Source of the DNA: a virus
Length of the DNA: 64,000 bases
Virus genome (UHGV): UHGV-0090252
Direction: 5' to 3' (one strand)
The translations under genes were made by a program, and so were the position numbers. Positions 27,689-63,795 of this stretch are shown in pieces (positions within the stretch are counted from its first letter, which is position 1; every line of letters starts with the position of its first letter). The notes below the pieces were generated by a model. That model was not told where the DNA came from. It did no database searches and saw nothing but the letters and a program-made list of their open reading frames with translations.

Positions 27689-27764
27689 TGGAGAATCCGA
27701 AGGGACTCGAACCCTTATAAACCTGTTTTGCAGACAGGCGCATATCCATTTCTGTCACGGATTC
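27689..27764 (-). tRNA. tRNA-Cys (anticodon GCA)
   Basis: Hand-folded cloverleaf; 7-bp acceptor, T-loop TTCGAGT, encoded CCA. Confidence 0.8.
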
Positions 27765-27768
27765 AAAT

Positions 27769-27861
27769 TGGAGGAAGATACCAGACTTGAACTGGTACAC
27801 CGATTTCTCAGCTACTGGCAGTTTAGCAAACTGCTCCCTTACCTTTTAGGGTTAATCTTCC
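27769..27861 (-). tRNA. tRNA-Ser (anticodon GCT), long variable arm
   Basis: 93 nt, type II structure, encoded CCA. Confidence 0.75.
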
Positions 27862-27862
27862 G

Positions 27863-50247: not shown

Positions 50248-51033
50248 TTAGTTCTTTGCGTCTAAGAAGGTAACTTCTGGCGAAGAGAAAACTGTCTCGA
50301 TATCCTCATCAGTTCTTGCATAGATGTAGGTGTCTGCATCGCTACCAAATGTCACGGCAATTCTATGATTGCTCTTCGACAGGTGGGTAACTAGAGCGTT
50401 ACTTAGAGACATCTTTTCAACCGGAGGGTTACTTTGATGTATCTTACCTTTTCTTCGTCTGAAGAGGGTAACTGCATTATCCGTGAACACAACTACACCT
50501 GCAAAGTATTCTGGTTCACAGTAGTTCTTCCAACCTGAGCGTAACTTGTGGTACATCTCTCCTTCATAGACATACAGATAAACATCCACACTCTTCATCA
50601 CCTGATTGATGATAACTGTGACAGCTTGAGGGTCAAGTCCACCAATACCTGCACCAATCATAGGTAAACCAACTTTCTTCAACTGATTGACTTCACAGTA
50701 TCTGTTAAGCTGTTTCAAAGATGACTCTAAAGCACTGTATCGTGCATCTTTACCAGTATGAAGTTGGGTGTAAAGGTTAGCTATACGACCTTGTTTTAAA
50801 CGTGCTACAGATAAATTACCTAGTAAATTTTCACAGGGTTTGTGACGAATGCCACCTGCAAACAGGTAAACTTCTGTGTCAGTATCATACACTTTTGGAT
50901 AACGCTTAGAAATAGTTGCTGCAATACCTGCACCCATGAAATTCATACAGTTGCAACCATGACCAATGATATCAAATTTACCTTTATCAAATGCTTCAAA
51001 GATATCACCTTTGATGATTTTTACAATACCCAT
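50248..51033 (-). CDS. macro-domain protein (ADP-ribose binding/processing) with C-terminal extension
   Basis: 261 aa; macro-domain-like motifs GDI..DIIGHGCNCMNFMGAGIAATI and VGLPMIGAGIGGLDP. Confidence 0.65.
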   Translation of the reverse strand: MGIVKIIKGDIFEAFDKGKFDIIGHGCNCMNFMGAGIAATISKRYPKVYDTDTEVYLFAGGIRHKPCENLLGNLSVARLKQGRIANLYTQLHTGKDARYSALESSLKQLNRYCEVNQLKKVGLPMIGAGIGGLDPQAVTVIINQVMKSVDVYLYVYEGEMYHKLRSGWKNYCEPEYFAGVVVFTDNAVTLFRRRKGKIHQSNPPVEKMSLSNALVTHLSKSNHRIAVTFGSDADTYIYARTDEDIETVFSSPEVTFLDAKN

Positions 51034-53061: not shown

Positions 53062-53757
53062 TCAATGTTTTACTAACATAGTTTTAATGTGTGGAAGGAT
53101 TCTGTTCACCTTCTGCACATTCTTCTCTGTATCTTCTATAAAACATACTATATCAAAGTAAGGCAGAATGCAAGACTGAATCATCCTCACTTTCAAACTT
53201 TCTGCACTTATAGAGTTAGTCCCAAAACCACGCATAAAAAGCATGTAATCATGCTCTATGTAATGCCTTAAAAACATCTCAGTAGGTATTCTCTGAGATT
53301 CACCTCTCGCTGTCAAGAGTCCAATGGCGGCATGATTAGCAATTGCGTCAATGATGTTGAAAACATACGTTGGTTTTGCTCTTACAGAGTCAAGCAAATT
53401 AGTGTACTGTGAAAATGACCCATCAATCAATTCCATTGAGCAATCTTCGTGATTAAAATTTGTAAGAACACCATCAATGTCTGCTAAGATAAGGTTACCT
53501 TTTTCTACAAGGTCTTTATTGACTATGACTAAGCTATCACGACTTACACCTATAGTTTGTCCAGTCTCTTTATCTACAACATTCACAATTGGCTCTGATG
53601 TGTGGAACTCTTCGAGTGAACATACGACTTCTCTTGCGGTGTCTTCAAAATCCCTACACTGTTCTGGAGTACATACACAGGAATCAAGACCTAACTCATG
53701 AGGATGTAAGTCGTAAGCATGACACAGTACTTCATCAGACTTTTTTAATTTTTTCAT
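53062..53757 (-). CDS. HAD-superfamily hydrolase-like protein (putative nucleotidase) with Cys-rich N-terminus
   Basis: 231 aa; LILADIDGVLT resembles HAD motif I (DxDG). Confidence 0.45.
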   Translation of the reverse strand: MKKLKKSDEVLCHAYDLHPHELGLDSCVCTPEQCRDFEDTAREVVCSLEEFHTSEPIVNVVDKETGQTIGVSRDSLVIVNKDLVEKGNLILADIDGVLTNFNHEDCSMELIDGSFSQYTNLLDSVRAKPTYVFNIIDAIANHAAIGLLTARGESQRIPTEMFLRHYIEHDYMLFMRGFGTNSISAESLKVRMIQSCILPYFDIVCFIEDTEKNVQKVNRILPHIKTMLVKH

Positions 53758-54283
53758 GGTTTACCTTAGAAATGTTTGTTGCAAATTCACATTGAGCAAT
53801 AACTTTCATGTTGTTATAGACATCTTGAGAATATTTCTTAGCTTTAGGGATTCTGTACGAATACCCAGCATTATATGATGCTAAAACTTTTTGTAAAGTC
53901 TTCTTTGACTTTGGCTGACCATGCACCTTTGTCCAAAACTCAAGTTCTTTGTGCGTTTCCTTCGCAGCATAGTTAAAGTCTTTTAAGAGTTTCTTTTTAG
54001 CCACATTAGGACTAATTTTGTTACGCTTTACAACAGTCTTCAAGTGATTCTGGAAAATACCATAATCATGTGTCTTTTTATTCTCTACCTTCAGACCTAA
54101 CTCTGACTCTTGTAAGGCTATAGCAGCTAGAGTGATACCCCAACCTTTACCCATGTTGTTCTCACCATACTGGTAAGCTTTTAACATGTTTACTTTTTGG
54201 CTAATTGATAGCTCTGGGCAGTCAACTGCATAAGATAAGTGTGCTGTAAACATTAAGCACAAACCTAGAATCAATTTCTTCAT
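53735..54283 (-). CDS. secreted lytic transglycosylase (SLT domain)
   Basis: 182 aa; signal peptide; SLT-like motifs ALQESELG, YGIFQ, AYNAGYSY. Confidence 0.65.
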   Translation of the reverse strand: MKKLILGLCLMFTAHLSYAVDCPELSISQKVNMLKAYQYGENNMGKGWGITLAAIALQESELGLKVENKKTHDYGIFQNHLKTVVKRNKISPNVAKKKLLKDFNYAAKETHKELEFWTKVHGQPKSKKTLQKVLASYNAGYSYRIPKAKKYSQDVYNNMKVIAQCEFATNISKVNHEKIKKV

Positions 54284-54383
54284 TGGTTCTCCTGTTTAGT
54301 TTATCGTGACAACAATTATACAGCACTCTGCACAAAATACAAATAAAAAAGGCCGCCGAAGCAGCCTTTTAAGAAATTACTTA

Positions 54384-55493
54384 TTAGATTTCACGTTTAC
54401 GCTGAGAGATGAGTTCACCAGCAGTACCAACGATGACATGTAAAGCTTCAGTCTTGCCATCCCATGCTTTCAACACTTTACGTTGATTATCAACGATTGC
54501 TGCAACTTCATAACGAGATGAGCGCATCTTCATATCGTTGTAATCAGTTGGAACAGATACAACATCTCGTGGATGGACACGAACCTTCAGAATTGTATCA
54601 CCTGAGAAACAACGAACATAATCCCAAGCACCAACGTGAAGACCTTGAGAGCAAGTCACGTTACGGTTATTATCAACCATCCAACGTGGCATTTCTACAA
54701 CGTTGCCCAAATCATTAGGCACTCTGTAGGTGTGAGAATCAACCAGCTTGCCTTCACGAGTAGAGACTTTCTTCCAACCAATGATGTAGCCTTCTTCATC
54801 AATTTCAACATCAAGGTGAGATACGAAGCCCCAAAGTTGTTCTACAGAGTCTTTAGATGGGTTTTCCATCAGTTTTTCGAAGAACATCACAAGGCGTTCA
54901 AAGCCTTTATCCCCAGTCTTCATCATGTGAAGAATACGGTCAACCAGAGTAGAACGCATCTCAACAGCACCGTAGAACAGCTTGTCACCTTTGATTGTGA
55001 TAGCACCCTGAGTGAAGTTCTCGATAGACTTACGAATGTTCATCAGTTCAAAGGCTTTCTTAAACTCACCTTTCACAACATGAACTACAATCTCTTGATA
55101 GTTCGGATGAGTAGACTCAACAATTTCAGATTCTGAACCGTAAGTCATAATTACAGAGTCACCAGTAATCATGTACTCTATCTTGTCATCTTTCTGCATA
55201 GCTTCATGCAGTTTATTTACTGGAGCTTTCTGTACAGACTCTTTAACGACCTTTTCAACTTGTTTGCCAGATTTCTTTTTAAAAGTCTTAGCAACTTGTT
55301 TCAAAGTCTTCGTAGCTGGTGTAGAAGTCGCCTTCTTATTACCTTTTAAGGTTGCTTCATGACGCTCTACAGCACGACCAACTGAACGGGTTGAAGTATT
55401 AAATTTCTGTGCAATAGCTGTTTTAGTCAGCTTACCTTCTTTAACCAGTTTGTAAATTTCTGCGTCAATCTGTGCTTTAGTTTTAGTAGTCAT
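54384..55493 (-). CDS. rIIB: rIIB-like protein
   Basis: 369 aa immediately downstream of the rIIA-like gene; assignment by synteny only. Confidence 0.45.
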   Translation of the reverse strand: MTTKTKAQIDAEIYKLVKEGKLTKTAIAQKFNTSTRSVGRAVERHEATLKGNKKATSTPATKTLKQVAKTFKKKSGKQVEKVVKESVQKAPVNKLHEAMQKDDKIEYMITGDSVIMTYGSESEIVESTHPNYQEIVVHVVKGEFKKAFELMNIRKSIENFTQGAITIKGDKLFYGAVEMRSTLVDRILHMMKTGDKGFERLVMFFEKLMENPSKDSVEQLWGFVSHLDVEIDEEGYIIGWKKVSTREGKLVDSHTYRVPNDLGNVVEMPRWMVDNNRNVTCSQGLHVGAWDYVRCFSGDTILKVRVHPRDVVSVPTDYNDMKMRSSRYEVAAIVDNQRKVLKAWDGKTEALHVIVGTAGELISQRKREI

Positions 55494-55572
55494 CTTATTA
55501 CTCTCTCTTGTTAGTTAATAAATCATTTTGTGAGGTTATTCTAAGGGGCTTCAAAGCCCCTTGTCAAACACT

Positions 55573-57939
55573 TTAATCGTAAACTGTTGTACCTTCTGGA
55601 ACACATTTTACATCAAAGCCTAAGAACTTACTCACTTCGATGGGGGACACTTTATTCCAATCTAAATGAGAAAGCAAGAAGTTTTCTTGTTTTCTTTTTG
55701 AAAGGTAGTTTGTCACCTTAATGACCATGCGGTCACCAGCTTTCTTAATTTTCTTGTACAGCTTTGTATCATTGTCAAGGCATTCTTTCAAAGTTTGCAA
55801 TCTACTAATAGTGTAAGTGTATGCAAACGGTGCAGCAACGTATTGGATTTTACCAAACATTGCCTCAACAGCATCTTCATTACCTTCTAAGAAGATAGTT
55901 TTGTTTGTGTCTCGTGAATAGCAATAGCCACGAGAAATCTTCCTGTTATTGAACGTAAAGTTTCTGGCAATAATCCAGCTACTTGTAAGGTCAAGAACAC
56001 CATTCATGTAGATGCGTGTCATATACCTGTTATGATTAATCCAATGAACATCAGTTAAGCTGTCGTTCAAGAGCTTCTCATCTACTTCAATCCAGTCTTC
56101 TGGTATCTTTTTCCAATTTGCTTTTCGGAAAACATAGACTGTCTTTCCAATAACATTAGCAACTGACTTAGCTACATCTTCTGGGGATGAGCAAAAACAT
56201 TCACCATCAACTGTGTCACCAATTGCCTTAATGTAAAGCTGAGGTTCTTCAATTGTGTCTAAGTCCTCTGAAACCTCTTTATAGGAAGCTACACCTTCTG
56301 CTGGAACAGCTTTCCAGAGTTTTACAACACCCCTTACAGCTTCTTTGCGCTGGTAATGGTGCTCCTTATCAGACATTTTCACAATCTTTAACAAGCTTTT
56401 ATCAAGTTTGTGTAGATTGATTAAATCATCTAACTCTTTTTCAGTCGAGAATACAAACACAATACCATTGTATCTGTGGAACAAACTTGACTCGTTGGCG
56501 TAGTCTCGACATGCACCACGCAGAATCTGATTGCGGCCTACAGTCTTCTCAGTACCATTTTTATTGCGACGGTCATTAATAACAAACAAAAACTGTTCAA
56601 TTTGACTTTTACGCATTGCACCAAAGATATTGAACATGCTTGCTTCTTGAGTGTAGGAAAGTGCTGTTGCACGAATCTTACTCTCTAAAGAGTTAAACTT
56701 AACATAAGCAACTGGATTGTATAGGTAGTCAACTTTAGGGATATTGTTTCCTTTGCTGTCAACCTTAATATTGCCTTTGCCGTCACGTTCATAGATGACT
56801 GAGCCGTCTTCTGCGTAGATAATTCCACGACGAATGTTTAGCAATTCTTCTTCCAGAGAATCAAGCTTAACACCTCCCCACTCTAGCTTTGGACACACAG
56901 CATTAAACATTTCTCGTGAGTTCAAACGTAATTCTGCATAAGCCTGTGCAGCATCCATGAGTGTAGGTTGGCTATTAACCCCCTTAATAACATCCCTTGT
57001 AATTGCTTCAGTTATCTTTTTGGTAGCCTCAATGATGACATTTTTTGTCGTATCATTCATCTGCAATGCTTCACGAGAAGCTGCAATAGCCACTGAACCA
57101 ATAGGCATGTAGATGTTTACAAGGTCTACGCTCCTACGGAAAAATTCTGGCAAGACTTTGAAGAAATCATCACCAAGTAATGCTTCCATATTAACTGGGT
57201 AGGCAATATTACCCATTACCACATTAAAATCTGTCCTGTTGCCACTAGAACGCCAGCTTTGCTTATGAATCATAGCATCATAAACACCTTCTTCACGGGC
57301 AATGACGTTCATATCTGCTAACACGTCATCATACACAATGTTACTTTCTGGTTTTACAGCAAAGTATGAGTATACGTGACCAGCCTCTTCAAAGAACTTT
57401 GAAATACGGTGGTCAGCAACTGCCACACGTACAGCTAAGCCATTAGGTTCATTTGTTGGGTTAGTAGTAAGCTTAGTCACTTGAGGGATACCATTCTCAA
57501 GGTAAACAGAGTATTTATTAACAACACCATCAACATAGCTAGACACCGTGAATGACTGAGCAATTGCAAACGGTGACTTTGAGCCGATACCCATTGCACC
57601 AATGTAGTCATTAGAGTCGTTCTTCGTAGAAGCCCCGTAGTTCAGGTACAAACTCATTACTTTGTCATGGGTTAAACCAGTTCCAAAGTCACGGACTTCA
57701 AAGTAAGGCTCAAATCGAGTAGGCAAATGCACATGGAATGGGATGTTCTCTTTTCCAGCTTCTTTCTGAGCATCTACTGCATTACATGACAGTTCACGAA
57801 TCACTGCCCTTTCTTTGAAAGTGTATACACCAGAACTCAGAAGGCTGAACATTTCAGGTGTCATTGTAATCTGTGCTTGAGATGTCTCCAAAGAAGTTGA
57901 ACTCTTAATCACTTCTGCGTGGTCGTTTACCATGCGCAT
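55573..57939 (-). CDS. rIIA: rIIA-like protein (N-terminal GHKL-type ATPase domain)
   Basis: 788 aa; histidine-kinase-like ATPase boxes ELSCNAVDA, DFGTGL, GAMGIGSKS. Confidence 0.65.
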   Translation of the reverse strand: MRMVNDHAEVIKSSTSLETSQAQITMTPEMFSLLSSGVYTFKERAVIRELSCNAVDAQKEAGKENIPFHVHLPTRFEPYFEVRDFGTGLTHDKVMSLYLNYGASTKNDSNDYIGAMGIGSKSPFAIAQSFTVSSYVDGVVNKYSVYLENGIPQVTKLTTNPTNEPNGLAVRVAVADHRISKFFEEAGHVYSYFAVKPESNIVYDDVLADMNVIAREEGVYDAMIHKQSWRSSGNRTDFNVVMGNIAYPVNMEALLGDDFFKVLPEFFRRSVDLVNIYMPIGSVAIAASREALQMNDTTKNVIIEATKKITEAITRDVIKGVNSQPTLMDAAQAYAELRLNSREMFNAVCPKLEWGGVKLDSLEEELLNIRRGIIYAEDGSVIYERDGKGNIKVDSKGNNIPKVDYLYNPVAYVKFNSLESKIRATALSYTQEASMFNIFGAMRKSQIEQFLFVINDRRNKNGTEKTVGRNQILRGACRDYANESSLFHRYNGIVFVFSTEKELDDLINLHKLDKSLLKIVKMSDKEHHYQRKEAVRGVVKLWKAVPAEGVASYKEVSEDLDTIEEPQLYIKAIGDTVDGECFCSSPEDVAKSVANVIGKTVYVFRKANWKKIPEDWIEVDEKLLNDSLTDVHWINHNRYMTRIYMNGVLDLTSSWIIARNFTFNNRKISRGYCYSRDTNKTIFLEGNEDAVEAMFGKIQYVAAPFAYTYTISRLQTLKECLDNDTKLYKKIKKAGDRMVIKVTNYLSKRKQENFLLSHLDWNKVSPIEVSKFLGFDVKCVPEGTTVYD

Positions 57940-58811: not shown

Positions 58812-58864
58812 AGTTTTCTCCAGAAATTAAAAAGGCTCCCGTAGGAGCCTCTTATCATATACTT

Positions 58865-60646
58865 TTAAAGCTGCTTGTCAATATTGTTTCGAATATCACC
58901 AAGAGTTGTGTAACCGAACTGCTCAGAGTCACTAAAGACTAAACGTAAAGCACAAGCTGGATGTTCAAGTGCATCTGCAAAGCTCTGGAATCCATAGCCA
59001 TCTACAGCTTTCAACTTATCACCATCCCACATAGGTGCTACACCACCAAAAGCAGACTTCTTAACACCACTATCTGTTTTAGGGTCTTTTGCAAGCATAA
59101 TCTCTTTACCACCAATGCTTGCAAGAGTTGCTTTAACAGCAAATGCAAAGGTGTCACGAGTCATGTACTGGTAAGTGTAAGAGCCTACGCCAAACACTAC
59201 GTTAGAGCTTGCAAAACCCATTTCATACAGACGCTTCAGTATTTCGTTTGCACGTTCCAGCGTGATAGAGTCGCCATAGATAAGACCGATATGCTCATCC
59301 AGTACCTTAAACCCTTTAGAGTTGATAGTCCCACCAAAGATGTTGTACAGTGTCTTAATAGCTCCATCAATTTCAGCTACAGGACGTGTTACAACGTTTG
59401 CAGAGCCGTTGATGTAAGCATCTTTCAGCAACACTGTATCGGCTACTTCAAAGTCTTCTCTGTCAACCACCATTTCATAGCCTTCTGCACGTAACCACCC
59501 AGCCATAACATAGTTAATATCTTCAAGCTTCATGTTCAGGACGGTGCTCAACATTGTGTCACTGGCATTCTGCTTGATAAGGTGCTCGTAATAAGCCTTC
59601 TTAGCACACTCTAAGTGGATTGCTTTATAACCTGTGACAATATGTACAGGGTCTCCAGAGTCAGGGCGAATTACCAGCTTACCATCACGTTCCATAATTT
59701 CTTTACGAAGTGCTGGTAAGATTTCTGACACAGTTCTCCAGAAGTTATAAGTATCTGAAACAATACTTGCAATACCAGTTGGGTAAGTTTCTGTTAAGAA
59801 ACGACGGAAGGTTTGTAACTCACCGTTAAAGCGTCTTTCCTCTTCAATCAATTCATTACCACCTTCCCAAGCGATGTTTGCACACATCACAGAGTGTTCA
59901 GTAGCTGGTACAGAACTACCAATGTCAGAGATTGGGTAAGACTGTCCATAGATACGTTTAGCTGTGTATACAGCAGGGAAGCTATCAGTCCCTTTAAAGC
60001 TGGTTAAGTGACCTACAGCGTTAAATGCGTCATCAGTAAAGCCGGACATACCACGCATAGCAAAGTCATGGCACTGATAAGGTAAATGTAAGTCATTGTC
60101 GCAAGTAAGGTCAGCCAACTTCTTACAGATGCGTTTGTAATGTAATGCAATAGTTGCAATGGTGCAAGCCTTCCAAATCTCAGCAGAGAAAGCATCTTCC
60201 AGATACCCTGCTACCCAATGGAAACCTGAAACAGTGTTCTGGAAGACAATCATTGGGACACGCATAGGAACAACTGTACCTTCTTCTACAGCGTATACTT
60301 CAACTGGTAGATAGCCTAAGTCGTGAAGTGCTTCCCAATGCTCTCGACCGATAGCATCTTTACCCAGAACACCATTCATGACTTCTAAGATTTCATCAAT
60401 TGCTTCTTTCTTATCACGTTCAAAGAAAGTGGCGTTCCAGTGGTCTATCAAGTAATCTTTAACAAAACGTTGAATACCAAAAGCCACTACACCGTCAATT
60501 GCTAAAGGACTGTTAAACCATTTATCACTACGTGGTGTCAGGTTGAACATCAAGTATTCTGTTGCACTAGGGTACTGGTAAACATGACCAGATTTGTAAG
60601 CATCTGCGTTTAAACCTGCTGGTACTGCATAAAGTGATTTAGTCAT
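58865..60646 (-). CDS. nicotinamide phosphoribosyltransferase-family enzyme (NAMPT/NadV-like; candidate NARP1 Namat)
   Basis: 593 aa; NAMPT-like motifs DAYKSGH, CHDFAMRGMSG, SFKGTDS, VPATEHS, VSDTYN, IRPDSGDP; longer than canonical NAMPT. Confidence 0.8.
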   Translation of the reverse strand: MTKSLYAVPAGLNADAYKSGHVYQYPSATEYLMFNLTPRSDKWFNSPLAIDGVVAFGIQRFVKDYLIDHWNATFFERDKKEAIDEILEVMNGVLGKDAIGREHWEALHDLGYLPVEVYAVEEGTVVPMRVPMIVFQNTVSGFHWVAGYLEDAFSAEIWKACTIATIALHYKRICKKLADLTCDNDLHLPYQCHDFAMRGMSGFTDDAFNAVGHLTSFKGTDSFPAVYTAKRIYGQSYPISDIGSSVPATEHSVMCANIAWEGGNELIEEERRFNGELQTFRRFLTETYPTGIASIVSDTYNFWRTVSEILPALRKEIMERDGKLVIRPDSGDPVHIVTGYKAIHLECAKKAYYEHLIKQNASDTMLSTVLNMKLEDINYVMAGWLRAEGYEMVVDREDFEVADTVLLKDAYINGSANVVTRPVAEIDGAIKTLYNIFGGTINSKGFKVLDEHIGLIYGDSITLERANEILKRLYEMGFASSNVVFGVGSYTYQYMTRDTFAFAVKATLASIGGKEIMLAKDPKTDSGVKKSAFGGVAPMWDGDKLKAVDGYGFQSFADALEHPACALRLVFSDSEQFGYTTLGDIRNNIDKQL

Positions 60647-60691
60647 CTTTTAATCTCTCTCAAAATGGGGCTTTCAAGCCCCTATAAAGTT

Positions 60692-61573
60692 TCAATCAAT
60701 GGTTGCTACAGTAACTTGGGCGTAATGTGTTAAGCCACGGTCTTTAGCTTCACCTAAAGTGTTTGTAGTGTAGATATGGTCAATACCATTGTCAAGTAAG
60801 TTTTCAACACCTTTAGAGAAAATACCATGAGTTACATAGAGTTCCACACGTTTTGCACCTGCTTCACGTAGGTGTTTAGCTGCCTCTACGAAGGTTCGAC
60901 CACCATCACAGATATCATCAAGAATCATGACAGTTTTATCGGTCAAATCAACATCGTCAAGGATTCGCATACCAGTGATTTCTCCAGTCTTAAGATTGCG
61001 CACCTTAGACATTGTGATATACGGTTTATCCACCTCTTTAGCGGTATCTTCAGTCTTCTTAGCTGCACCTGCATCTGGGGCTACCAAGAAATCAATGCGT
61101 GGGTCACTTGCAAAGTGTACTGCCACATCTTTTTGCTTCATGCTCTGAAAGCACTTAAATAAGTTTTCTGCAACATTACTGTGAGGGTCAAGAGCACATA
61201 CTGCATCAAAGCCCATTGCATTAACTAGGTTGGCAAAGACTTTCAGTGCTGCTGCATCACCTTTGAACATGTGGCGGTCATATCGAGCATTTGGTAAGAA
61301 CCCGAAAACAACGGTTTTCATCGCTGATTTCTGGGGAACAAGACTGTCAACGGCATCCTTAGCCAAAGCTAATGCAAACAGTGTATCCTTGTCATATCCC
61401 TGTACAGTAATTATAACATTATCAATCTTACCAGCATTACGCTCAGTAAACTTAACAAAATCTTCAGAGAAGTTTCCACCAATTTCTCCAGATGGGAATT
61501 GAATGATATTAAATTTTTCTGTGTGGAAGAATTTCTCTTGTGCGGTGACGACGGCTTCAATAACAGTTTTCAT
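60692..61573 (-). CDS. ribose-phosphate pyrophosphokinase-family enzyme (PRPP synthetase-like; candidate NARP1 Adps)
   Basis: 293 aa; PRPP-binding loop VMILDDICDGGRT and Prs-like N-terminal domain; adjacent to the NAMPT-family gene. Confidence 0.8.
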   Translation of the reverse strand: MKTVIEAVVTAQEKFFHTEKFNIIQFPSGEIGGNFSEDFVKFTERNAGKIDNVIITVQGYDKDTLFALALAKDAVDSLVPQKSAMKTVVFGFLPNARYDRHMFKGDAAALKVFANLVNAMGFDAVCALDPHSNVAENLFKCFQSMKQKDVAVHFASDPRIDFLVAPDAGAAKKTEDTAKEVDKPYITMSKVRNLKTGEITGMRILDDVDLTDKTVMILDDICDGGRTFVEAAKHLREAGAKRVELYVTHGIFSKGVENLLDNGIDHIYTTNTLGEAKDRGLTHYAQVTVATID

Positions 61574-61584
61574 AGTTTTCTCTC

Positions 61585-61863
61585 TCAGTCAAAAGTTACG
61601 TTTGTTACTGCCATTGCAGATTTGCATTTTGCAGGGTCTACAACGTGATAAAGTACACTACAGTTACCTGTGCTGTCTGGTACAGGCTTTACCCATTGCT
61701 GCTTTATAGTTGGCTCCCCTAAGTCTTTGTAAGAGCCATCTGTAAAGTTGTTTACCATCTCAAGTGCAATTGGTTCTGGAACATGGCCACGTATCATGTA
61801 CATTTCACAACCATTACCGCCTTCACTGACTAATGGTAAAATCTCCCACTTCTCTTTAGCCAT
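61585..61863 (-). CDS. hypothetical protein
   Basis: 92 aa. Confidence 0.45.
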   Translation of the reverse strand: MAKEKWEILPLVSEGGNGCEMYMIRGHVPEPIALEMVNNFTDGSYKDLGEPTIKQQWVKPVPDSTGNCSVLYHVVDPAKCKSAMAVTNVTFD

Positions 61864-62371
61864 TATAAGTTGCCCTATAAACTGTCTCGAACTTCAACAG
61901 GAGAGATATTGCCAAATCTGTATAGTTGTTGTCAAGCACATCTGGCATATTATTTTTGATATATTTCTCTTGCTCTTCATAGGTCATCTTAGGTGTGCTT
62001 AGAAGGTTGTCCCCTTGCTTCTGGTTATCAAGTTTAGTCTGGATAAACCAGTTTGCACAGTGATGCTCACCACCCTTTGTAACAGGTTTGTGGTGGCCTA
62101 ATGTAAATGTTTGCTTACCTGTATACCTGCAAAGATTGTTCAGTGTTGCAATAGTGTTCTTCACAACACACCATTCATACAGGTTATCTATTGTGTAGTG
62201 TGGGTAATAACGGACAAGTACTCTTTCACGGAAGTTATCACGATTCCAAAGAACCATGTGATTCGAGTTAGAAGGGTCGTATTGGTGGGAGTCAATGAAC
62301 TCTTGACGTTCCTCAAAGCTGAGTCTTAGAACTGACATTGCAGCCGAACGTTTCAGGTTTGACAGATACAT
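61856..62371 (-). CDS. HNH endonuclease (putative homing endonuclease)
   Basis: 171 aa; HNH-like motif GHHKPVTKGGEHHCANW...N. Confidence 0.5.
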   Translation of the reverse strand: MYLSNLKRSAAMSVLRLSFEERQEFIDSHQYDPSNSNHMVLWNRDNFRERVLVRYYPHYTIDNLYEWCVVKNTIATLNNLCRYTGKQTFTLGHHKPVTKGGEHHCANWFIQTKLDNQKQGDNLLSTPKMTYEEQEKYIKNNMPDVLDNNYTDLAISLLLKFETVYRATYNG

Positions 62372-62422
62372 ATCATCTCCAAAATAAAAAGGGAACCTTT
62401 ACAGTTCCCTTATAGTATCTGT

Positions 62423-63003: not shown

Positions 63004-63347
63004 TTCGTATCTCTCTCAATCTTTTCACAAAATGTTTTAAGTTCTTCTTCAGTGACACCAACAATACTGTCTCCGACGTTTAAATTTGTTTTGTAGAACA
63101 TTGTGTAGTGACCTTTACCGACAACTTCAAATGTTCCAGCCTTCTCAATCTCTGCTAAGGCTTCCATTCCAACATTACCGAAAAGTGAGTTTGTATACTT
63201 TCTCCATTCATCAAGGAGTTCGGTCTTAACTTTGTAAGTACCTAATAAAGCACTGTTAAAAGAAAGAACCATTATTTCACCTTTTCCGTAACCCACTTTA
63301 CGACGAGACTTACTCGGCTCTCCACTGACAATCACCTTGCCACCCAT
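62970..63347 (-). CDS. hypothetical protein (start uncertain)
   Basis: ORF track start 63428 overlaps nrdG by 119 nt; internal ATG at 63347 (GGAG RBS) or 63272 is more plausible. Confidence 0.35.
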   Translation of the reverse strand: MGGKVIVSGEPSKSRRKVGYGKGEIMVLSFNSALLGTYKVKTELLDEWRKYTNSLFGNVGMEALAEIEKAGTFEVVGKGHYTMFYKTNLNVGDSIVGVTEEELKTFCEKIERDTKWESGIVLNQK

Positions 63348-63795
63348 ACTCTTTTCTCCATAGGTTTTGGTTATCAGAACCACGATATGGCTTAACTGTT
63401 GGTTTAGATGAATCATACTTACCATCAATCACCACGTCAACATATTTCATCACATCTAGGTGAATTTTTTCGTGTAGTTGAAAACCTGTCCAGAGCCATA
63501 TAGTCTTCTCTGGGTAAACAGTTTTAACACGTTTGCATATGTCGGTAACCTCTTGAATATTTCTATCATCCAGAGGTTCTCCACCAAGTATTGACAGCCC
63601 ACTGACAGCATCGTCACCCATTAACTGGATGATTCCGTATAGGTTTGCATAAGTGAACACTTTACCAGCATTAAACTTCCAAGACTCCCTGTTAAAACAG
63701 CCTTCACAGTGATGTTTACAGCCAGCTACGAAGAGGCTTACACGAACCCCTTCACCATTAGCTGTATCAAATGGTCGAATCTCCATGTAATTCAT
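63310..63795 (-). CDS. nrdG: anaerobic ribonucleotide reductase activating protein (radical SAM)
   Basis: 161 aa; cysteine cluster CKHHCEGC (Cx3Cx2C) near the N-terminus. Confidence 0.7.
   Translation of the reverse strand: MNYMEIRPFDTANGEGVRVSLFVAGCKHHCEGCFNRESWKFNAGKVFTYANLYGIIQLMGDDAVSGLSILGGEPLDDRNIQEVTDICKRVKTVYPEKTIWLWTGFQLHEKIHLDVMKYVDVVIDGKYDSSKPTVKPYRGSDNQNLWRKEYGWQGDCQWRAE

Follow-up and report, generated by a model that had tools for sequence, protein, structure and literature searches.

A predicted NARP1 counter-defence operon in a FelixO1-like phage genome

Introduction

Two adjacent genes in the virus genome UHGV-0090252 encode relatives of ribose-phosphate pyrophosphokinase (Prs) and nicotinamide phosphoribosyltransferase (NAMPT). 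Do they serve ordinary NAD+ salvage, or do they rebuild NAD+ that a host defence has destroyed? Here, the window denotes the whole stretch of DNA analysed, 64,000 nucleotides in length.

The two readings call for different chemistry. In classical salvage, a true Prs and a true NAMPT, starting from ribose-5-phosphate and nicotinamide, would yield NMN, which host NadR/PncC would carry on to NAD+, amounting to metabolic boosting and not recycling of ADP-ribose (ADPR). In the NARP1 pathway, host NADase defences (SIR2, TIR and SEFIR effectors) would first cleave NAD+ to ADPR and nicotinamide. The enzyme Adps, using ATP, would then pyrophosphorylate ADPR at ribose C1'' to give ADPR-pyrophosphate (ADPR-PP); next, the enzyme Namat would let nicotinamide displace the pyrophosphate of ADPR-PP, giving NAD+ directly. 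The rebuilt NAD+ would keep phage replication supplied, and the defences addressed would be SIR2-HerA, type I Thoeris, DSR1, DSR2 and SEFIR.

Results

The gene pair is syntenic with the NARP1 genes of Bas63

The window belongs to a FelixO1-like phage (Felixounavirus). Over the locus, its nucleotide identity to phage Tribble was 96.3%, and that to Escherichia phage Bas63 (JohannRWettstein) was 95.7%. The two genes are co-oriented on the minus strand, with adps first and a 45-nt spacer between them:

60692..61573, minus strand: adps, predicted ADP-ribose diphosphokinase of the Prs family, 293 aa (NARP1 enzyme 1)
58865..60646, minus strand: namat, predicted nicotinamide ADP-ribose transferase of the NAMPT family, 593 aa (NARP1 enzyme 2)

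Gene order and neighbourhood are shared with Bas63 genes 79 and 80, including the flanks (rIIA/rIIB downstream, NrdG upstream), the 45-nt spacer with its hairpin and the downstream terminator. The Bas63 proteins (bas63_0079 Adps and bas63_0080 Namat) have the same lengths as those of the window, 293 and 593 aa, and both alignments were free of gaps. Adps was identical to Bas63 gp79 at 291/293 positions, with two residues differing, and Namat was identical to gp80 at 572/593, leaving 21 substitutions. A protein of phage garuso was 100% identical to the window Adps. Judged by sequence and synteny (99% and 96% identity), the two genes are orthologues of the pair that founded NARP1, so the system is already known, and the window holds near-identical copies of the published discovery gene pair. 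In the published analysis, a Namat homologue lay in the immediate vicinity of 97% of Adps-clade genes. Our literature search found no paper naming both Felixounavirus and NARP1, and a link to Felixounavirus was looked for in the RyDEP paper and none was found.

The original prediction had proposed a candidate NARP1-like Adps/Namat pair, a proposal that the identity and synteny to Bas63 79-80 and the Namat-specific residues described below support. The word 'candidate' understated the prior characterisation, and the novelty it implied was overstated.

Adps falls with phage Adps proteins

The 293-aa protein, earlier described as having a PRPP-synthetase fold with the VMILDDICDGGRT loop, matched PHROG 619 ribose-phosphate pyrophosphokinase (E=1.4e-99) and Pfam Pribosyltran and Pribosyl_synth, and it scored above the cutoff of the broad subfamily model TIGR01251 (139 bits vs 113), all of which bear out that description. 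The loop begins at residue 215, and the other Prs diphosphokinase motifs FPSGE, NARYDR and DPHS are also carried. The catalytic Lys of the flexible diphosphokinase loop is kept as K190 (equivalent to K197 of B. subtilis Prs and K162 of SpbetaL1 Adps); it lies within MSKVRN, which aligned to the HKERK loop of human PRS1. However, Adps fell below every NCBIfam Prs equivalog cutoff, the best being NF002095 (114 bits vs 296), with NF002320 at 102 vs 297, which speaks against the true Prs that classical salvage would need. These profile scores, together with the 99% identity to Bas63 Adps, one of the queries by which the clade was defined, place the protein by sequence in the phage Adps clade and not with cellular Prs. 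The gene is under purifying selection (median dN/dS 0.17).

Namat carries the adenine clamp

The 593-aa ORF had been called NAMPT-family, and PHROG 448 nicotinamide phosphoribosyltransferase (E=2.8e-201), Pfam NAPRTase (E=3.2e-35) and NAMPT_N all agreed. It also passed the cutoff of the NCBIfam equivalog NF006629 (469 bits vs 405), a point in favour of classical salvage; since that model was passed, generic profiles are unable to separate Namat from NAMPT. The best PDB sequence matches were 9w5w and 9w5x (E=7e-128), and scores stood at 431 bits to the Namat structure, 179 to Xanthomonas NAMPT 7yqo and ~140 to human NAMPT. With an AF2 model (pLDDT 93.1) as the Foldseek query, the same crystal structures came top (TM 0.95, target-normalised), ahead of NadV and mammalian NAMPT. 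Both represent SpbetaL1 Namat (PMC12774641), whose fold is shared with the window protein at only 37-38% identity in structural alignment. Canonical NAMPT/NadV (9ke8, human 2gvg) share the phosphoribosyltransferase fold, the core and the catalytic His, but structural and sequence scores to them were clearly lower than to Namat, and they lack the adenine clamp, which in the window consists of two elements:

59153..59185, minus strand: selectivity-clamp helix (SCH), GSYTYQYMTRD, Namat residues 488-498
60518..60523, minus strand: stacking pair K42-W43 of the selectivity-clamp loop (SCL), following T37-P38-R39 (TPRSDKW, as in Bas63)

The helix fits the published Namat-only consensus, GS-X-Phi-X-Phi-X-Phi-TRD with X aromatic, an adenine-clamp signature reported to be missing from NAMPT (PMC12774641), and it was conserved in 40/40 aligned homologues. 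In the loop, adenine is stacked by an Arg at position 3 or, where that position holds Lys or Tyr, by the residue at position 4; a Lys at position 3 is reported to leave this stacking to the fourth residue, 'e.g. Bas63 Namat' (PMC12774641). K42-W43 supplies this predicted adenine-stacking residue exactly as in Bas63, whereas SpbetaL1 uses Arg40. All clamp residues are identical between the window and Bas63. The contacts defined in SpbetaL1 were likewise present (D15, Y17, F195, R198, D221, H251, R327 and D329, then G458-D459-S460, G488-S489, Y490, Y494 and T496-R497-D498), so that those to NAM, ribose-phosphate and adenine are kept or conservatively replaced (F392 to Y490) and the SCH is the same. 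The Namat core is likewise under purifying selection, with a median dN/dS of ~0.03 (0.029; Nei-Gojobori, 28 pairs among eight Felixounavirus genes).

NAD+ reconstitution versus classical salvage

Functional evidence comes from the Bas63 genes and from SpbetaL1 homologues, and it is from these, the former 96-99% identical to the window genes, that the NARP1 chemistry and anti-defence phenotype are carried over. Deletion of Bas63 genes 79-80 caused a ~20-fold loss of plating on SIR2-HerA and a deeper depletion of NAD+ (Osterman et al., bioRxiv 10.1101/2024.02.11.579819). Co-expression of NARP1 also overrode type I Thoeris, DSR1, DSR2 and SEFIR. The in vitro chemistry, in which ADPR and ATP give ADPR-PP, and ADPR-PP and nicotinamide give NAD+, was established with SpbetaL1 homologues, as the Bas63 protein 'did not purify well' (bioRxiv 10.1101/2024.02.11.579819).

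Classical salvage can draw on nomenclature, in that nearly all database records name the pair Prs/NAMPT and the family names in Pfam, PHROG and NCBIfam point the same way. It can also draw on biochemistry: in vitro, Namat retained PRPP-dependent NMN synthesis, roughly half as fast as human NAMPT (PMC12774641), and by analogy the window Namat may have some activity of this classical kind. Nevertheless, three published results weigh against it (bioRxiv 10.1101/2024.02.11.579819). Bas63 still prevailed over SIR2-HerA when the host was deleted for both pncC and nadR, so the rescue had no need of either host gene; ADPR-PP (m/z 720.010) accumulated solely with wild-type Bas63, when the defence system was present; and purified SpbetaL1 Adps made ADPR-PP from ADPR and ATP and was judged by the authors not to be a Prs. 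Together with the adenine-clamp signature of the window Namat, which true NAMPTs lack, and the failure of its Adps at every Prs equivalog cutoff, these results make classical salvage a very improbable account of the pair.

Among related phage systems, NARP2 of Vibrio phage KVP40 (NAMPT + NMNAT) differs in its partner enzyme, which is an NMNAT, whereas the partner in the window is a Prs-family kinase; no NMNAT or NadR was found among the annotations of the syntenic 37 kb of Bas63. From orthology, synteny, the published catalytic and specificity residues and the fold, we put the probability that the locus is a NARP1 counter-defence operon of Felixounavirus at roughly 0.93.

An inserted subdomain accounts for most of the extra length of Namat

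The NAMPT homologue had been described as about 100 aa longer than canonical enzymes, correctly so, at 593 aa vs about 490-496 aa in short homologues. The extra length comprises an insertion of ~72-77 aa at residues ~343-426, a second of ~14 aa at ~259-273 and small differences elsewhere. SpbetaL1 Namat lacks both insertions (~77 and ~14 aa); the Bas63 insertion is of the same type as in the window.

59369..59620, minus strand: insertion in Namat (residues ~343-426) that forms a lineage-specific subdomain

The larger insertion forms an ordered subdomain of ~84 residues at a length-variable site, where the 496-aa homologues have a linker of ~20 residues, and no recognisable fold relative was found for it. 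Most of the divergence from Bas63 is concentrated here: 17 of the 21 Namat substitutions lie in residues 357-421, where entropy is high. Against Bas63, dS was 0.52 in the insertion and 0.16 in the rest of the gene, and the insertion of the window had dS values of 0.52-0.79 compared with 0.12-0.37 in its flanks. This excess of synonymous divergence points to a recombined, more divergent patch. Positive or diversifying selection was considered and ruled out, because the median dN/dS of the insertion was 0.105 (vs 0.029 in the core; 28 pairs, eight Felixounavirus genes), indicating purifying selection weaker than in the core, and because the excess divergence was also synonymous. The subdomain would appear to be a structural decoration that leaves the chemistry unchanged; more speculatively, it could serve Ounavirinae Namat in a way particular to this lineage, for instance in regulation or in binding a partner.

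The pair probably shares a transcript with two small upstream ORFs

Hairpins bound the pair on both sides and a further one lies in the spacer:

62389..62411, minus strand: upstream terminator-like hairpin at the start of the predicted adps-namat transcription unit, equivalent to Term10 annotated in Tribble
61585..62371, minus strand: two small ORFs between this terminator and adps, of 171 aa (61856-62371) and 92 aa (61585-61863)
60662..60682, minus strand: GC-rich hairpin in the spacer of 45 nt between adps and namat (GGGGCTT-GAA-AGCCCC, then ATTTT)
58830..58853, minus strand: intrinsic-terminator-like hairpin directly past the namat stop codon, with a ten-pair stem and a T-run

The hairpin past namat is identical in Bas63 and is annotated as terminator Term11 in the Tribble record. 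From this arrangement, adps, namat and the two upstream ORFs are probably co-transcribed between the two terminators. The stem of the spacer hairpin is also identical in Bas63, with differing flanking bases, and could act in, for example, partial termination or transcript stabilisation.

Both small ORFs were kept in all relatives examined and matched families of unknown function, PHROG 3500 (171 aa) and PHROG 4726 (92 aa). Neither had a significant Pfam match. The 171-aa ORF also matched an HNH endonuclease family weakly (phrog_2214, E=5.3e-6), and COG1403 is the annotation of its orthologue in SP-107. A third NARP1 component was sought in the six small ORFs flanking the pair: Pfam returned nothing significant except DUF7390, and PHROGs returned unknown-function families only, apart from the HNH match.

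An unlinked macro-domain protein is a possible accessory

A macro-domain protein elsewhere in the window had been suggested to feed ADPR into the same chemistry.

50248..51033, minus strand: macro-domain 'phosphatase', 261 aa, possible NARP1 accessory

The ORF is real (Pfam Macro E=5.2e-7; PHROG 335 E=6.9e-115), its matches, like those of Adps and Namat, lying well outside chance expectation, with a macro domain at residues ~1-165 followed by a C-terminal extension of ~95 aa. The idea of a phosphatase, Adpp, that feeds ADPR to the pathway is itself published, as NARP1-AP (bioRxiv 10.64898/2026.01.28.702374), and all three protein families of the NARP1-AP of Vibrio phage Gary (Adps-Adpp-Namat) are encoded in the window genome. 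In Gary, the phosphatase sits between adps and namat, whereas the macro gene of the window is separated from NARP1 by 7.8 kb, a distance of 15 genes, on the same strand, with Bas63 gene 95 (bas63_0095), 15 genes downstream of gene 80, as its orthologue. The suggested supply of ADPR is partly supported: Adpp homology and the catalytic His are in place, but operon linkage is absent and the family includes the anti-DarT protein AdfM.

The better-placed of two readings is that the protein is unrelated to NARP1 and is an AdfM-like ADP-ribosylglycohydrolase that would clear DarT-type marks from phage DNA. Its best-scoring characterised relative was T2 Tk.4 (AdfM; 80 bits, 34% identity). In T4, tk.4 knockout left the phage sensitive to DarTG2, and Tk.4 resembles the DarG macrodomain (bioRxiv 10.1101/2025.11.20.689424). 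The missing linkage to NARP1 fits this reading too. On the other side, Tk.4 resembles Adpp proteins (77-84 bits) no less than it does the window protein, so the macro family is not cleanly split by function, and the literature searched held no DarT data for Felixounaviruses. We consider this reading plausible, at somewhat short of even odds.

The other reading is that the protein acts in trans as Adpp, an ADPR-1''-phosphate phosphatase that would convert the product of aRES, the RES-domain NAD+ phosphorylases, to ADPR for Adps and Namat, as in NARP1-AP. Over the full macro domain it aligned with five NARP1-linked Adpp proteins of the published Table S1 (25-35% identity), and 14 columns of the alignment were invariant. 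Among these was H25, which corresponds to the catalytic His H24 of Gary Adpp, the residue targeted by the H24A mutation (bioRxiv 10.64898/2026.01.28.702374); the protein is accordingly a Poa1p-like macro domain with the catalytic His. It also matched Pseudomonas phage C11, a listed Adpp carrier (E=1e-13), shares its strand with NARP1, and had full-length matches in 258 phage records vs 260 for the NARP1 locus. Against it, the gene lies beyond the published linkage limit of two genes from NARP1 (bioRxiv 10.64898/2026.01.28.702374), the published NARP1-AP table lists no Escherichia or Salmonella phage, and phage records with a member of the macro family number 2,808, vs 1,546 with an Adps match. 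T2 Tk.4 is just as close, and its counterpart in T4, AdfM, acts against DarTG2. The ~95-aa extension is missing from Adpp proteins. No ADPR-1''-phosphate phosphatase or aRES-rescue data for Felixounaviruses were found in the literature searched, and the text and supplements of the aRES paper do not mention Bas63 or the BASEL phages. We regard an Adpp role as possible but unlikely.

Telling Adpp from AdfM by pairwise similarity was given up, all three groups being about equally distant (27-35% identity). A single macro enzyme may do both jobs. Two bolder propositions, that Felixounaviruses extend NARP1 in trans with their conserved two-domain macro protein as an Adpp-type, perhaps AdfM-bifunctional, phosphatase, and that the ~84-residue Namat subdomain has a lineage-specific role, are speculative and on balance improbable.

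Discussion

Re-identification of NARP1 in this Felixounavirus genome carries little weight as a discovery, and its practical worth is in annotation. Public records, those of the closest genomes included, still name the pair 'ribose-phosphate pyrophosphokinase' and 'nicotinamide phosphoribosyltransferase', and Namat can be told from NAMPT simply by its GS-X-Phi-X-Phi-X-Phi-TRD motif. The macro-domain protein bears on the reach of the system. If it does serve NARP1 in trans, RES-domain (aRES) defences would be overcome by the pathway as well. The published figure of 15% for NARP1 phages with the phosphatase, for which only genes within two positions were counted (bioRxiv 10.64898/2026.01.28.702374), would then be too low.

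The adps-namat pair is a known NARP1 operon

The original prediction placed a NAMPT-family gene next to a PRPP-synthetase-family gene, and both ORFs were found at exactly these coordinates, separated by a 45-nt spacer:

60692-61573, minus strand: adps, Prs-family, 293 aa
58865-60646, minus strand: namat, NAMPT-family, 593 aa

Profile matches agreed with these assignments. The 593-aa protein matched PHROG 448 ('nicotinamide phosphoribosyl transferase', E=2.8e-201), Pfam NAPRTase (3.2e-35) and NAMPT_N, and the 293-aa protein matched PHROG 619 ('ribose-phosphate pyrophosphokinase', 1.4e-99), TIGR01251 and Pfam Pribosyltran and Pribosyl_synth; the predicted PRPP-synthetase loop VMILDDICDGGRT begins at residue 215 of the latter. 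Both proteins aligned without gaps to those of Bas63 (JohannRWettstein), the type phage of NARP1, with 291/293 identical residues for Adps (gp79) and 572/593 for Namat (gp80). The neighbourhood was also that of Bas63: three small ORFs plus the rIIA/rIIB genes lie downstream; upstream are two small ORFs, further small ORFs and NrdG. Together with a complete set of Namat clamp residues (below), this supports the proposed NARP1-like identity: the pair is a known NARP1 operon, already characterised, carried by a phage closely related to the type phage. The flanking genes were ordinary in kind: downstream, rIIA (788 aa), rIIB (369 aa) and a 231-aa protein whose Bas63 annotation is polynucleotide kinase (53062-57939, minus strand); upstream, NrdG, the activase of anaerobic ribonucleotide reductase (63310-63795, minus strand).

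NARP1 was discovered through bas63 genes 79 and 80 by Osterman et al., who judged the Pfam-based annotation (Prs plus NAMPT, yielding NMN) to be wrong (bioRxiv 10.1101/2024.02.11.579819). In that study, Bas63 lacking both genes plated ~20-fold lower on SIR2-HerA with deeper NAD+ depletion, the novel metabolite ADPR-pyrophosphate (ADPR-PP) appeared only with wild-type Bas63 plus the defence system, and rescue was independent of host pncC and nadR. In vitro, the SpbetaL1 Adps converted ADPR and ATP to ADPR-PP, from which Namat made NAD+ with nicotinamide (bioRxiv 10.1101/2024.02.11.579819). NARP1 is also reported to cancel type I Thoeris, DSR1, DSR2 and SEFIR. It had no such effect on type II Thoeris, which does not deplete NAD+. 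By analogy with the near-identical Bas63 orthologues, the window pair would have the same chemistry and anti-defence phenotype.

Megablast of the locus matched 260 phage records, nearly all of them from FelixO1-like myoviruses of Escherichia, Salmonella, Shigella and Citrobacter, led by Tribble (96.3% identity) and Bas63 (95.7%). A 25-kb query returned the same relatives at 92-93% identity and no identical record, and the window therefore falls in the genus Felixounavirus as a new isolate or variant. Its array of 25 tRNA genes (27689-32580, all minus strand) is group-typical and the counterpart of the annotated Bas63 cluster; one 93-nt gene (27769-27861) was called tRNA-Ser (gct) by ARAGORN versus tRNA-Arg (AGA) in the Bas63 annotation.

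Probable transcription unit

Two terminator-like hairpins, each corresponding to a terminator annotated independently in the Tribble record, enclose four genes: ORF171 (PHROG 3500), ORF92 (PHROG 4726), adps and namat.

62411-62389, minus strand: upstream terminator-like hairpin
58853-58830, minus strand: downstream terminator-like hairpin

From this arrangement we infer that the four genes are co-transcribed. Within the adps-namat spacer lies a GC-rich hairpin followed by ATTTT (60662-60682, minus strand), whose stem is unchanged in Bas63 while the flanking bases differ. This may be an attenuator or RNA-stability element and could set the ratio of Adps to Namat. ORF171 (61856-62371, minus strand), which heads the probable unit, matched HNH endonucleases weakly (phrog_2214, E=5.3e-6, motif HHKPVTKGGEHH...N). 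The orthologue in SP-107 has a COG1403 annotation, and among relatives ULIM3 and D4 carry extra annotated HNH genes inserted in this region.

Namat retains the NAMPT-like core and the adenine clamp

The structure paper on SpbetaL1 Namat (PMC12774641, 2026) described a conserved NAMPT-like core and an adenine 'selectivity clamp'. The clamp pairs a helix (SCH), whose consensus GS-X-Phi-X-Phi-X-Phi-TRD (X aromatic) is specific to Namat, with a variable loop (SCL) providing the stacking residue. Residues were mapped through a HMMER alignment to 9w5x and checked in the translated sequence, and all had counterparts in the window protein.

Counterparts of SpbetaL1 Namat residues (left) in window Namat (right)
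D13, Y15: D15, Y17
F189, R192: F195, R198
D215: D221
catalytic His: H251
R306, D308: R327, D329
G360-D361-A362: G458-D459-S460
G390-S391-F392...Y396.T398-R399-D400: G488-S489-Y490...Y494.T496-R497-D498

The window SCH reads GSYTYQYMTRD and the SCL TPRSDKW, the same arrangement as in Bas63 Namat, where Lys occupies SCL position 3 and position 4 stacks (PMC12774641). An AlphaFold2 model made from 40 homologs (pLDDT 93.1, pTM 0.91) had the Namat crystal structures 9w5x and 9w5w as its top PDB matches (TM 0.95 on target), with Haemophilus NadV and mammalian NAMPT ranking behind them. Namat-signature proteins of ~496 aa (GSFTYQYNTRD; P0068, P0074, P0091, P0117 and others) were also encoded on contigs of chromosome size from Klebsiella, Cronobacter, Kosakonia and Erwinia, with identities of ≤48%, consistent with published bacterial NARP1 homologs.

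A macro-domain protein may supply ADP-ribose

A macro-domain ORF had been predicted elsewhere in the window as a possible source of ADP-ribose, and the ORF itself was confirmed:

50248-51033, minus strand: macro protein, 261 aa, macro domain at residues ~1-165

The proposed role has a published precedent. RES-domain defences (aRES) convert NAD+ to ADPR-1''-phosphate, which NARP1 cannot use. A scan of genes no more than two positions from the operon detected the Poa1p-like macro phosphatase Adpp in 15% of NARP1 phages; this enzyme regenerates ADPR, and the pathway so extended is termed NARP1-AP (preprint 10.64898/2026.01.28.702374, 2026). By analogy, it is plausible that the macro protein acts as an Adpp in trans. 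Its macro domain aligned end to end with the Adpp proteins of Table S1 (25-35% identity), with 14 invariant columns including H25, the equivalent of Gary Adpp H24, target of the H24A substitution (10.64898/2026.01.28.702374). However, the gene lies 15 genes from namat, the NARP1-AP table contains no Escherichia or Salmonella phage, and members of the macro family are present in 2,808 phage records versus 1,546 with an Adps match. Moreover, T4 Tk.4 of the same family is the anti-DarTG2 factor AdfM (bioRxiv 10.1101/2025.11.20.689424). Against T2 Tk.4 the macro protein scored 80 bits, compared with 38-76 bits for Adpp proteins, and T2 Tk.4 itself reached 77-84 bits with the Adpp proteins of Gary and phiAbaA1; the Adpp and AdfM options cannot be told apart by pairwise score. 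The ~95-aa C-terminal extension (residues ~167-261; 50248-50535, minus strand) had no Pfam match and is limited to the Felixounavirus group, with 258 records covering ≥80% of the protein against the 2,808 matching the macro domain.

Namat length variation and exchange of the two genes

Namat had been noted to exceed canonical NAMPT enzymes by about 100 aa, and this extra length was located. Alignment with SpbetaL1 Namat splits in two (window residues 5-350 and 427-585), and in a 40-sequence alignment segment 335-430 holds 96 residues here versus 19-24 in the ~488-498-aa forms. A second hotspot, residues 255-280 (59807-59884, minus strand), has 26 residues here, 12 in short forms and ≤50 elsewhere. 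The long form is found across Ounavirinae-like phages, down to ~45% identity. In other lineages the length of segment 335-430 is intermediate or otherwise different, and a second type of long insertion there appears unrelated to the first; metagenomic Namat-signature proteins P0071, P0103 and P0116 carry such a ~100-residue insertion (TPHGE...NRYDKQYY) at the same site. Apparently unrelated long insertions at one site point to independent acquisitions at a single permissive loop. We found no discussion of the insertion in the NARP1 literature covered; because clamp and core are intact, we infer that it leaves the chemistry unaltered.

The insertion was the most variable Namat region among close orthologs, with a dN/dS of 0.105 versus 0.029 for the core, a value that indicates constraint and not diversification. 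Between the window and seven other Felixounaviruses, synonymous divergence was 0.52-0.79 in the insertion (59369-59620, minus strand, residues 343-426) and 0.12-0.37 in the remainder of the gene, while among those seven the insertion was no more divergent than its flanks. Raised synonymous divergence in the window insertion alone suggests a mosaic patch, the recombination tract not reaching beyond the insertion.

Adps retains the diphosphokinase motifs and the catalytic lysine (K190, equivalent to B. subtilis Prs K197 and SpbetaL1 K162), and scored far under all NCBIfam Prs equivalog cutoffs. The PDB copy searched held no Adps structure, the top match being a Prs (E=1.5e-18). Adps matches among phages included a second identity band at ~77-82%, and within Felixounavirus there are two allele types, one starting MKTVIEAV (window, Bas63, Tribble, SP-107) and the other MKTSIRVT (Alf5, TP1, fjerdesal) or MKTSIRVI (P219). 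Their Namat partners differ little (core dN ≤ 0.017). The pairing of both Adps allele types with near-uniform Namat indicates that adps and namat are exchanged independently, consistent with a published report that the two enzymes form no stable complex.
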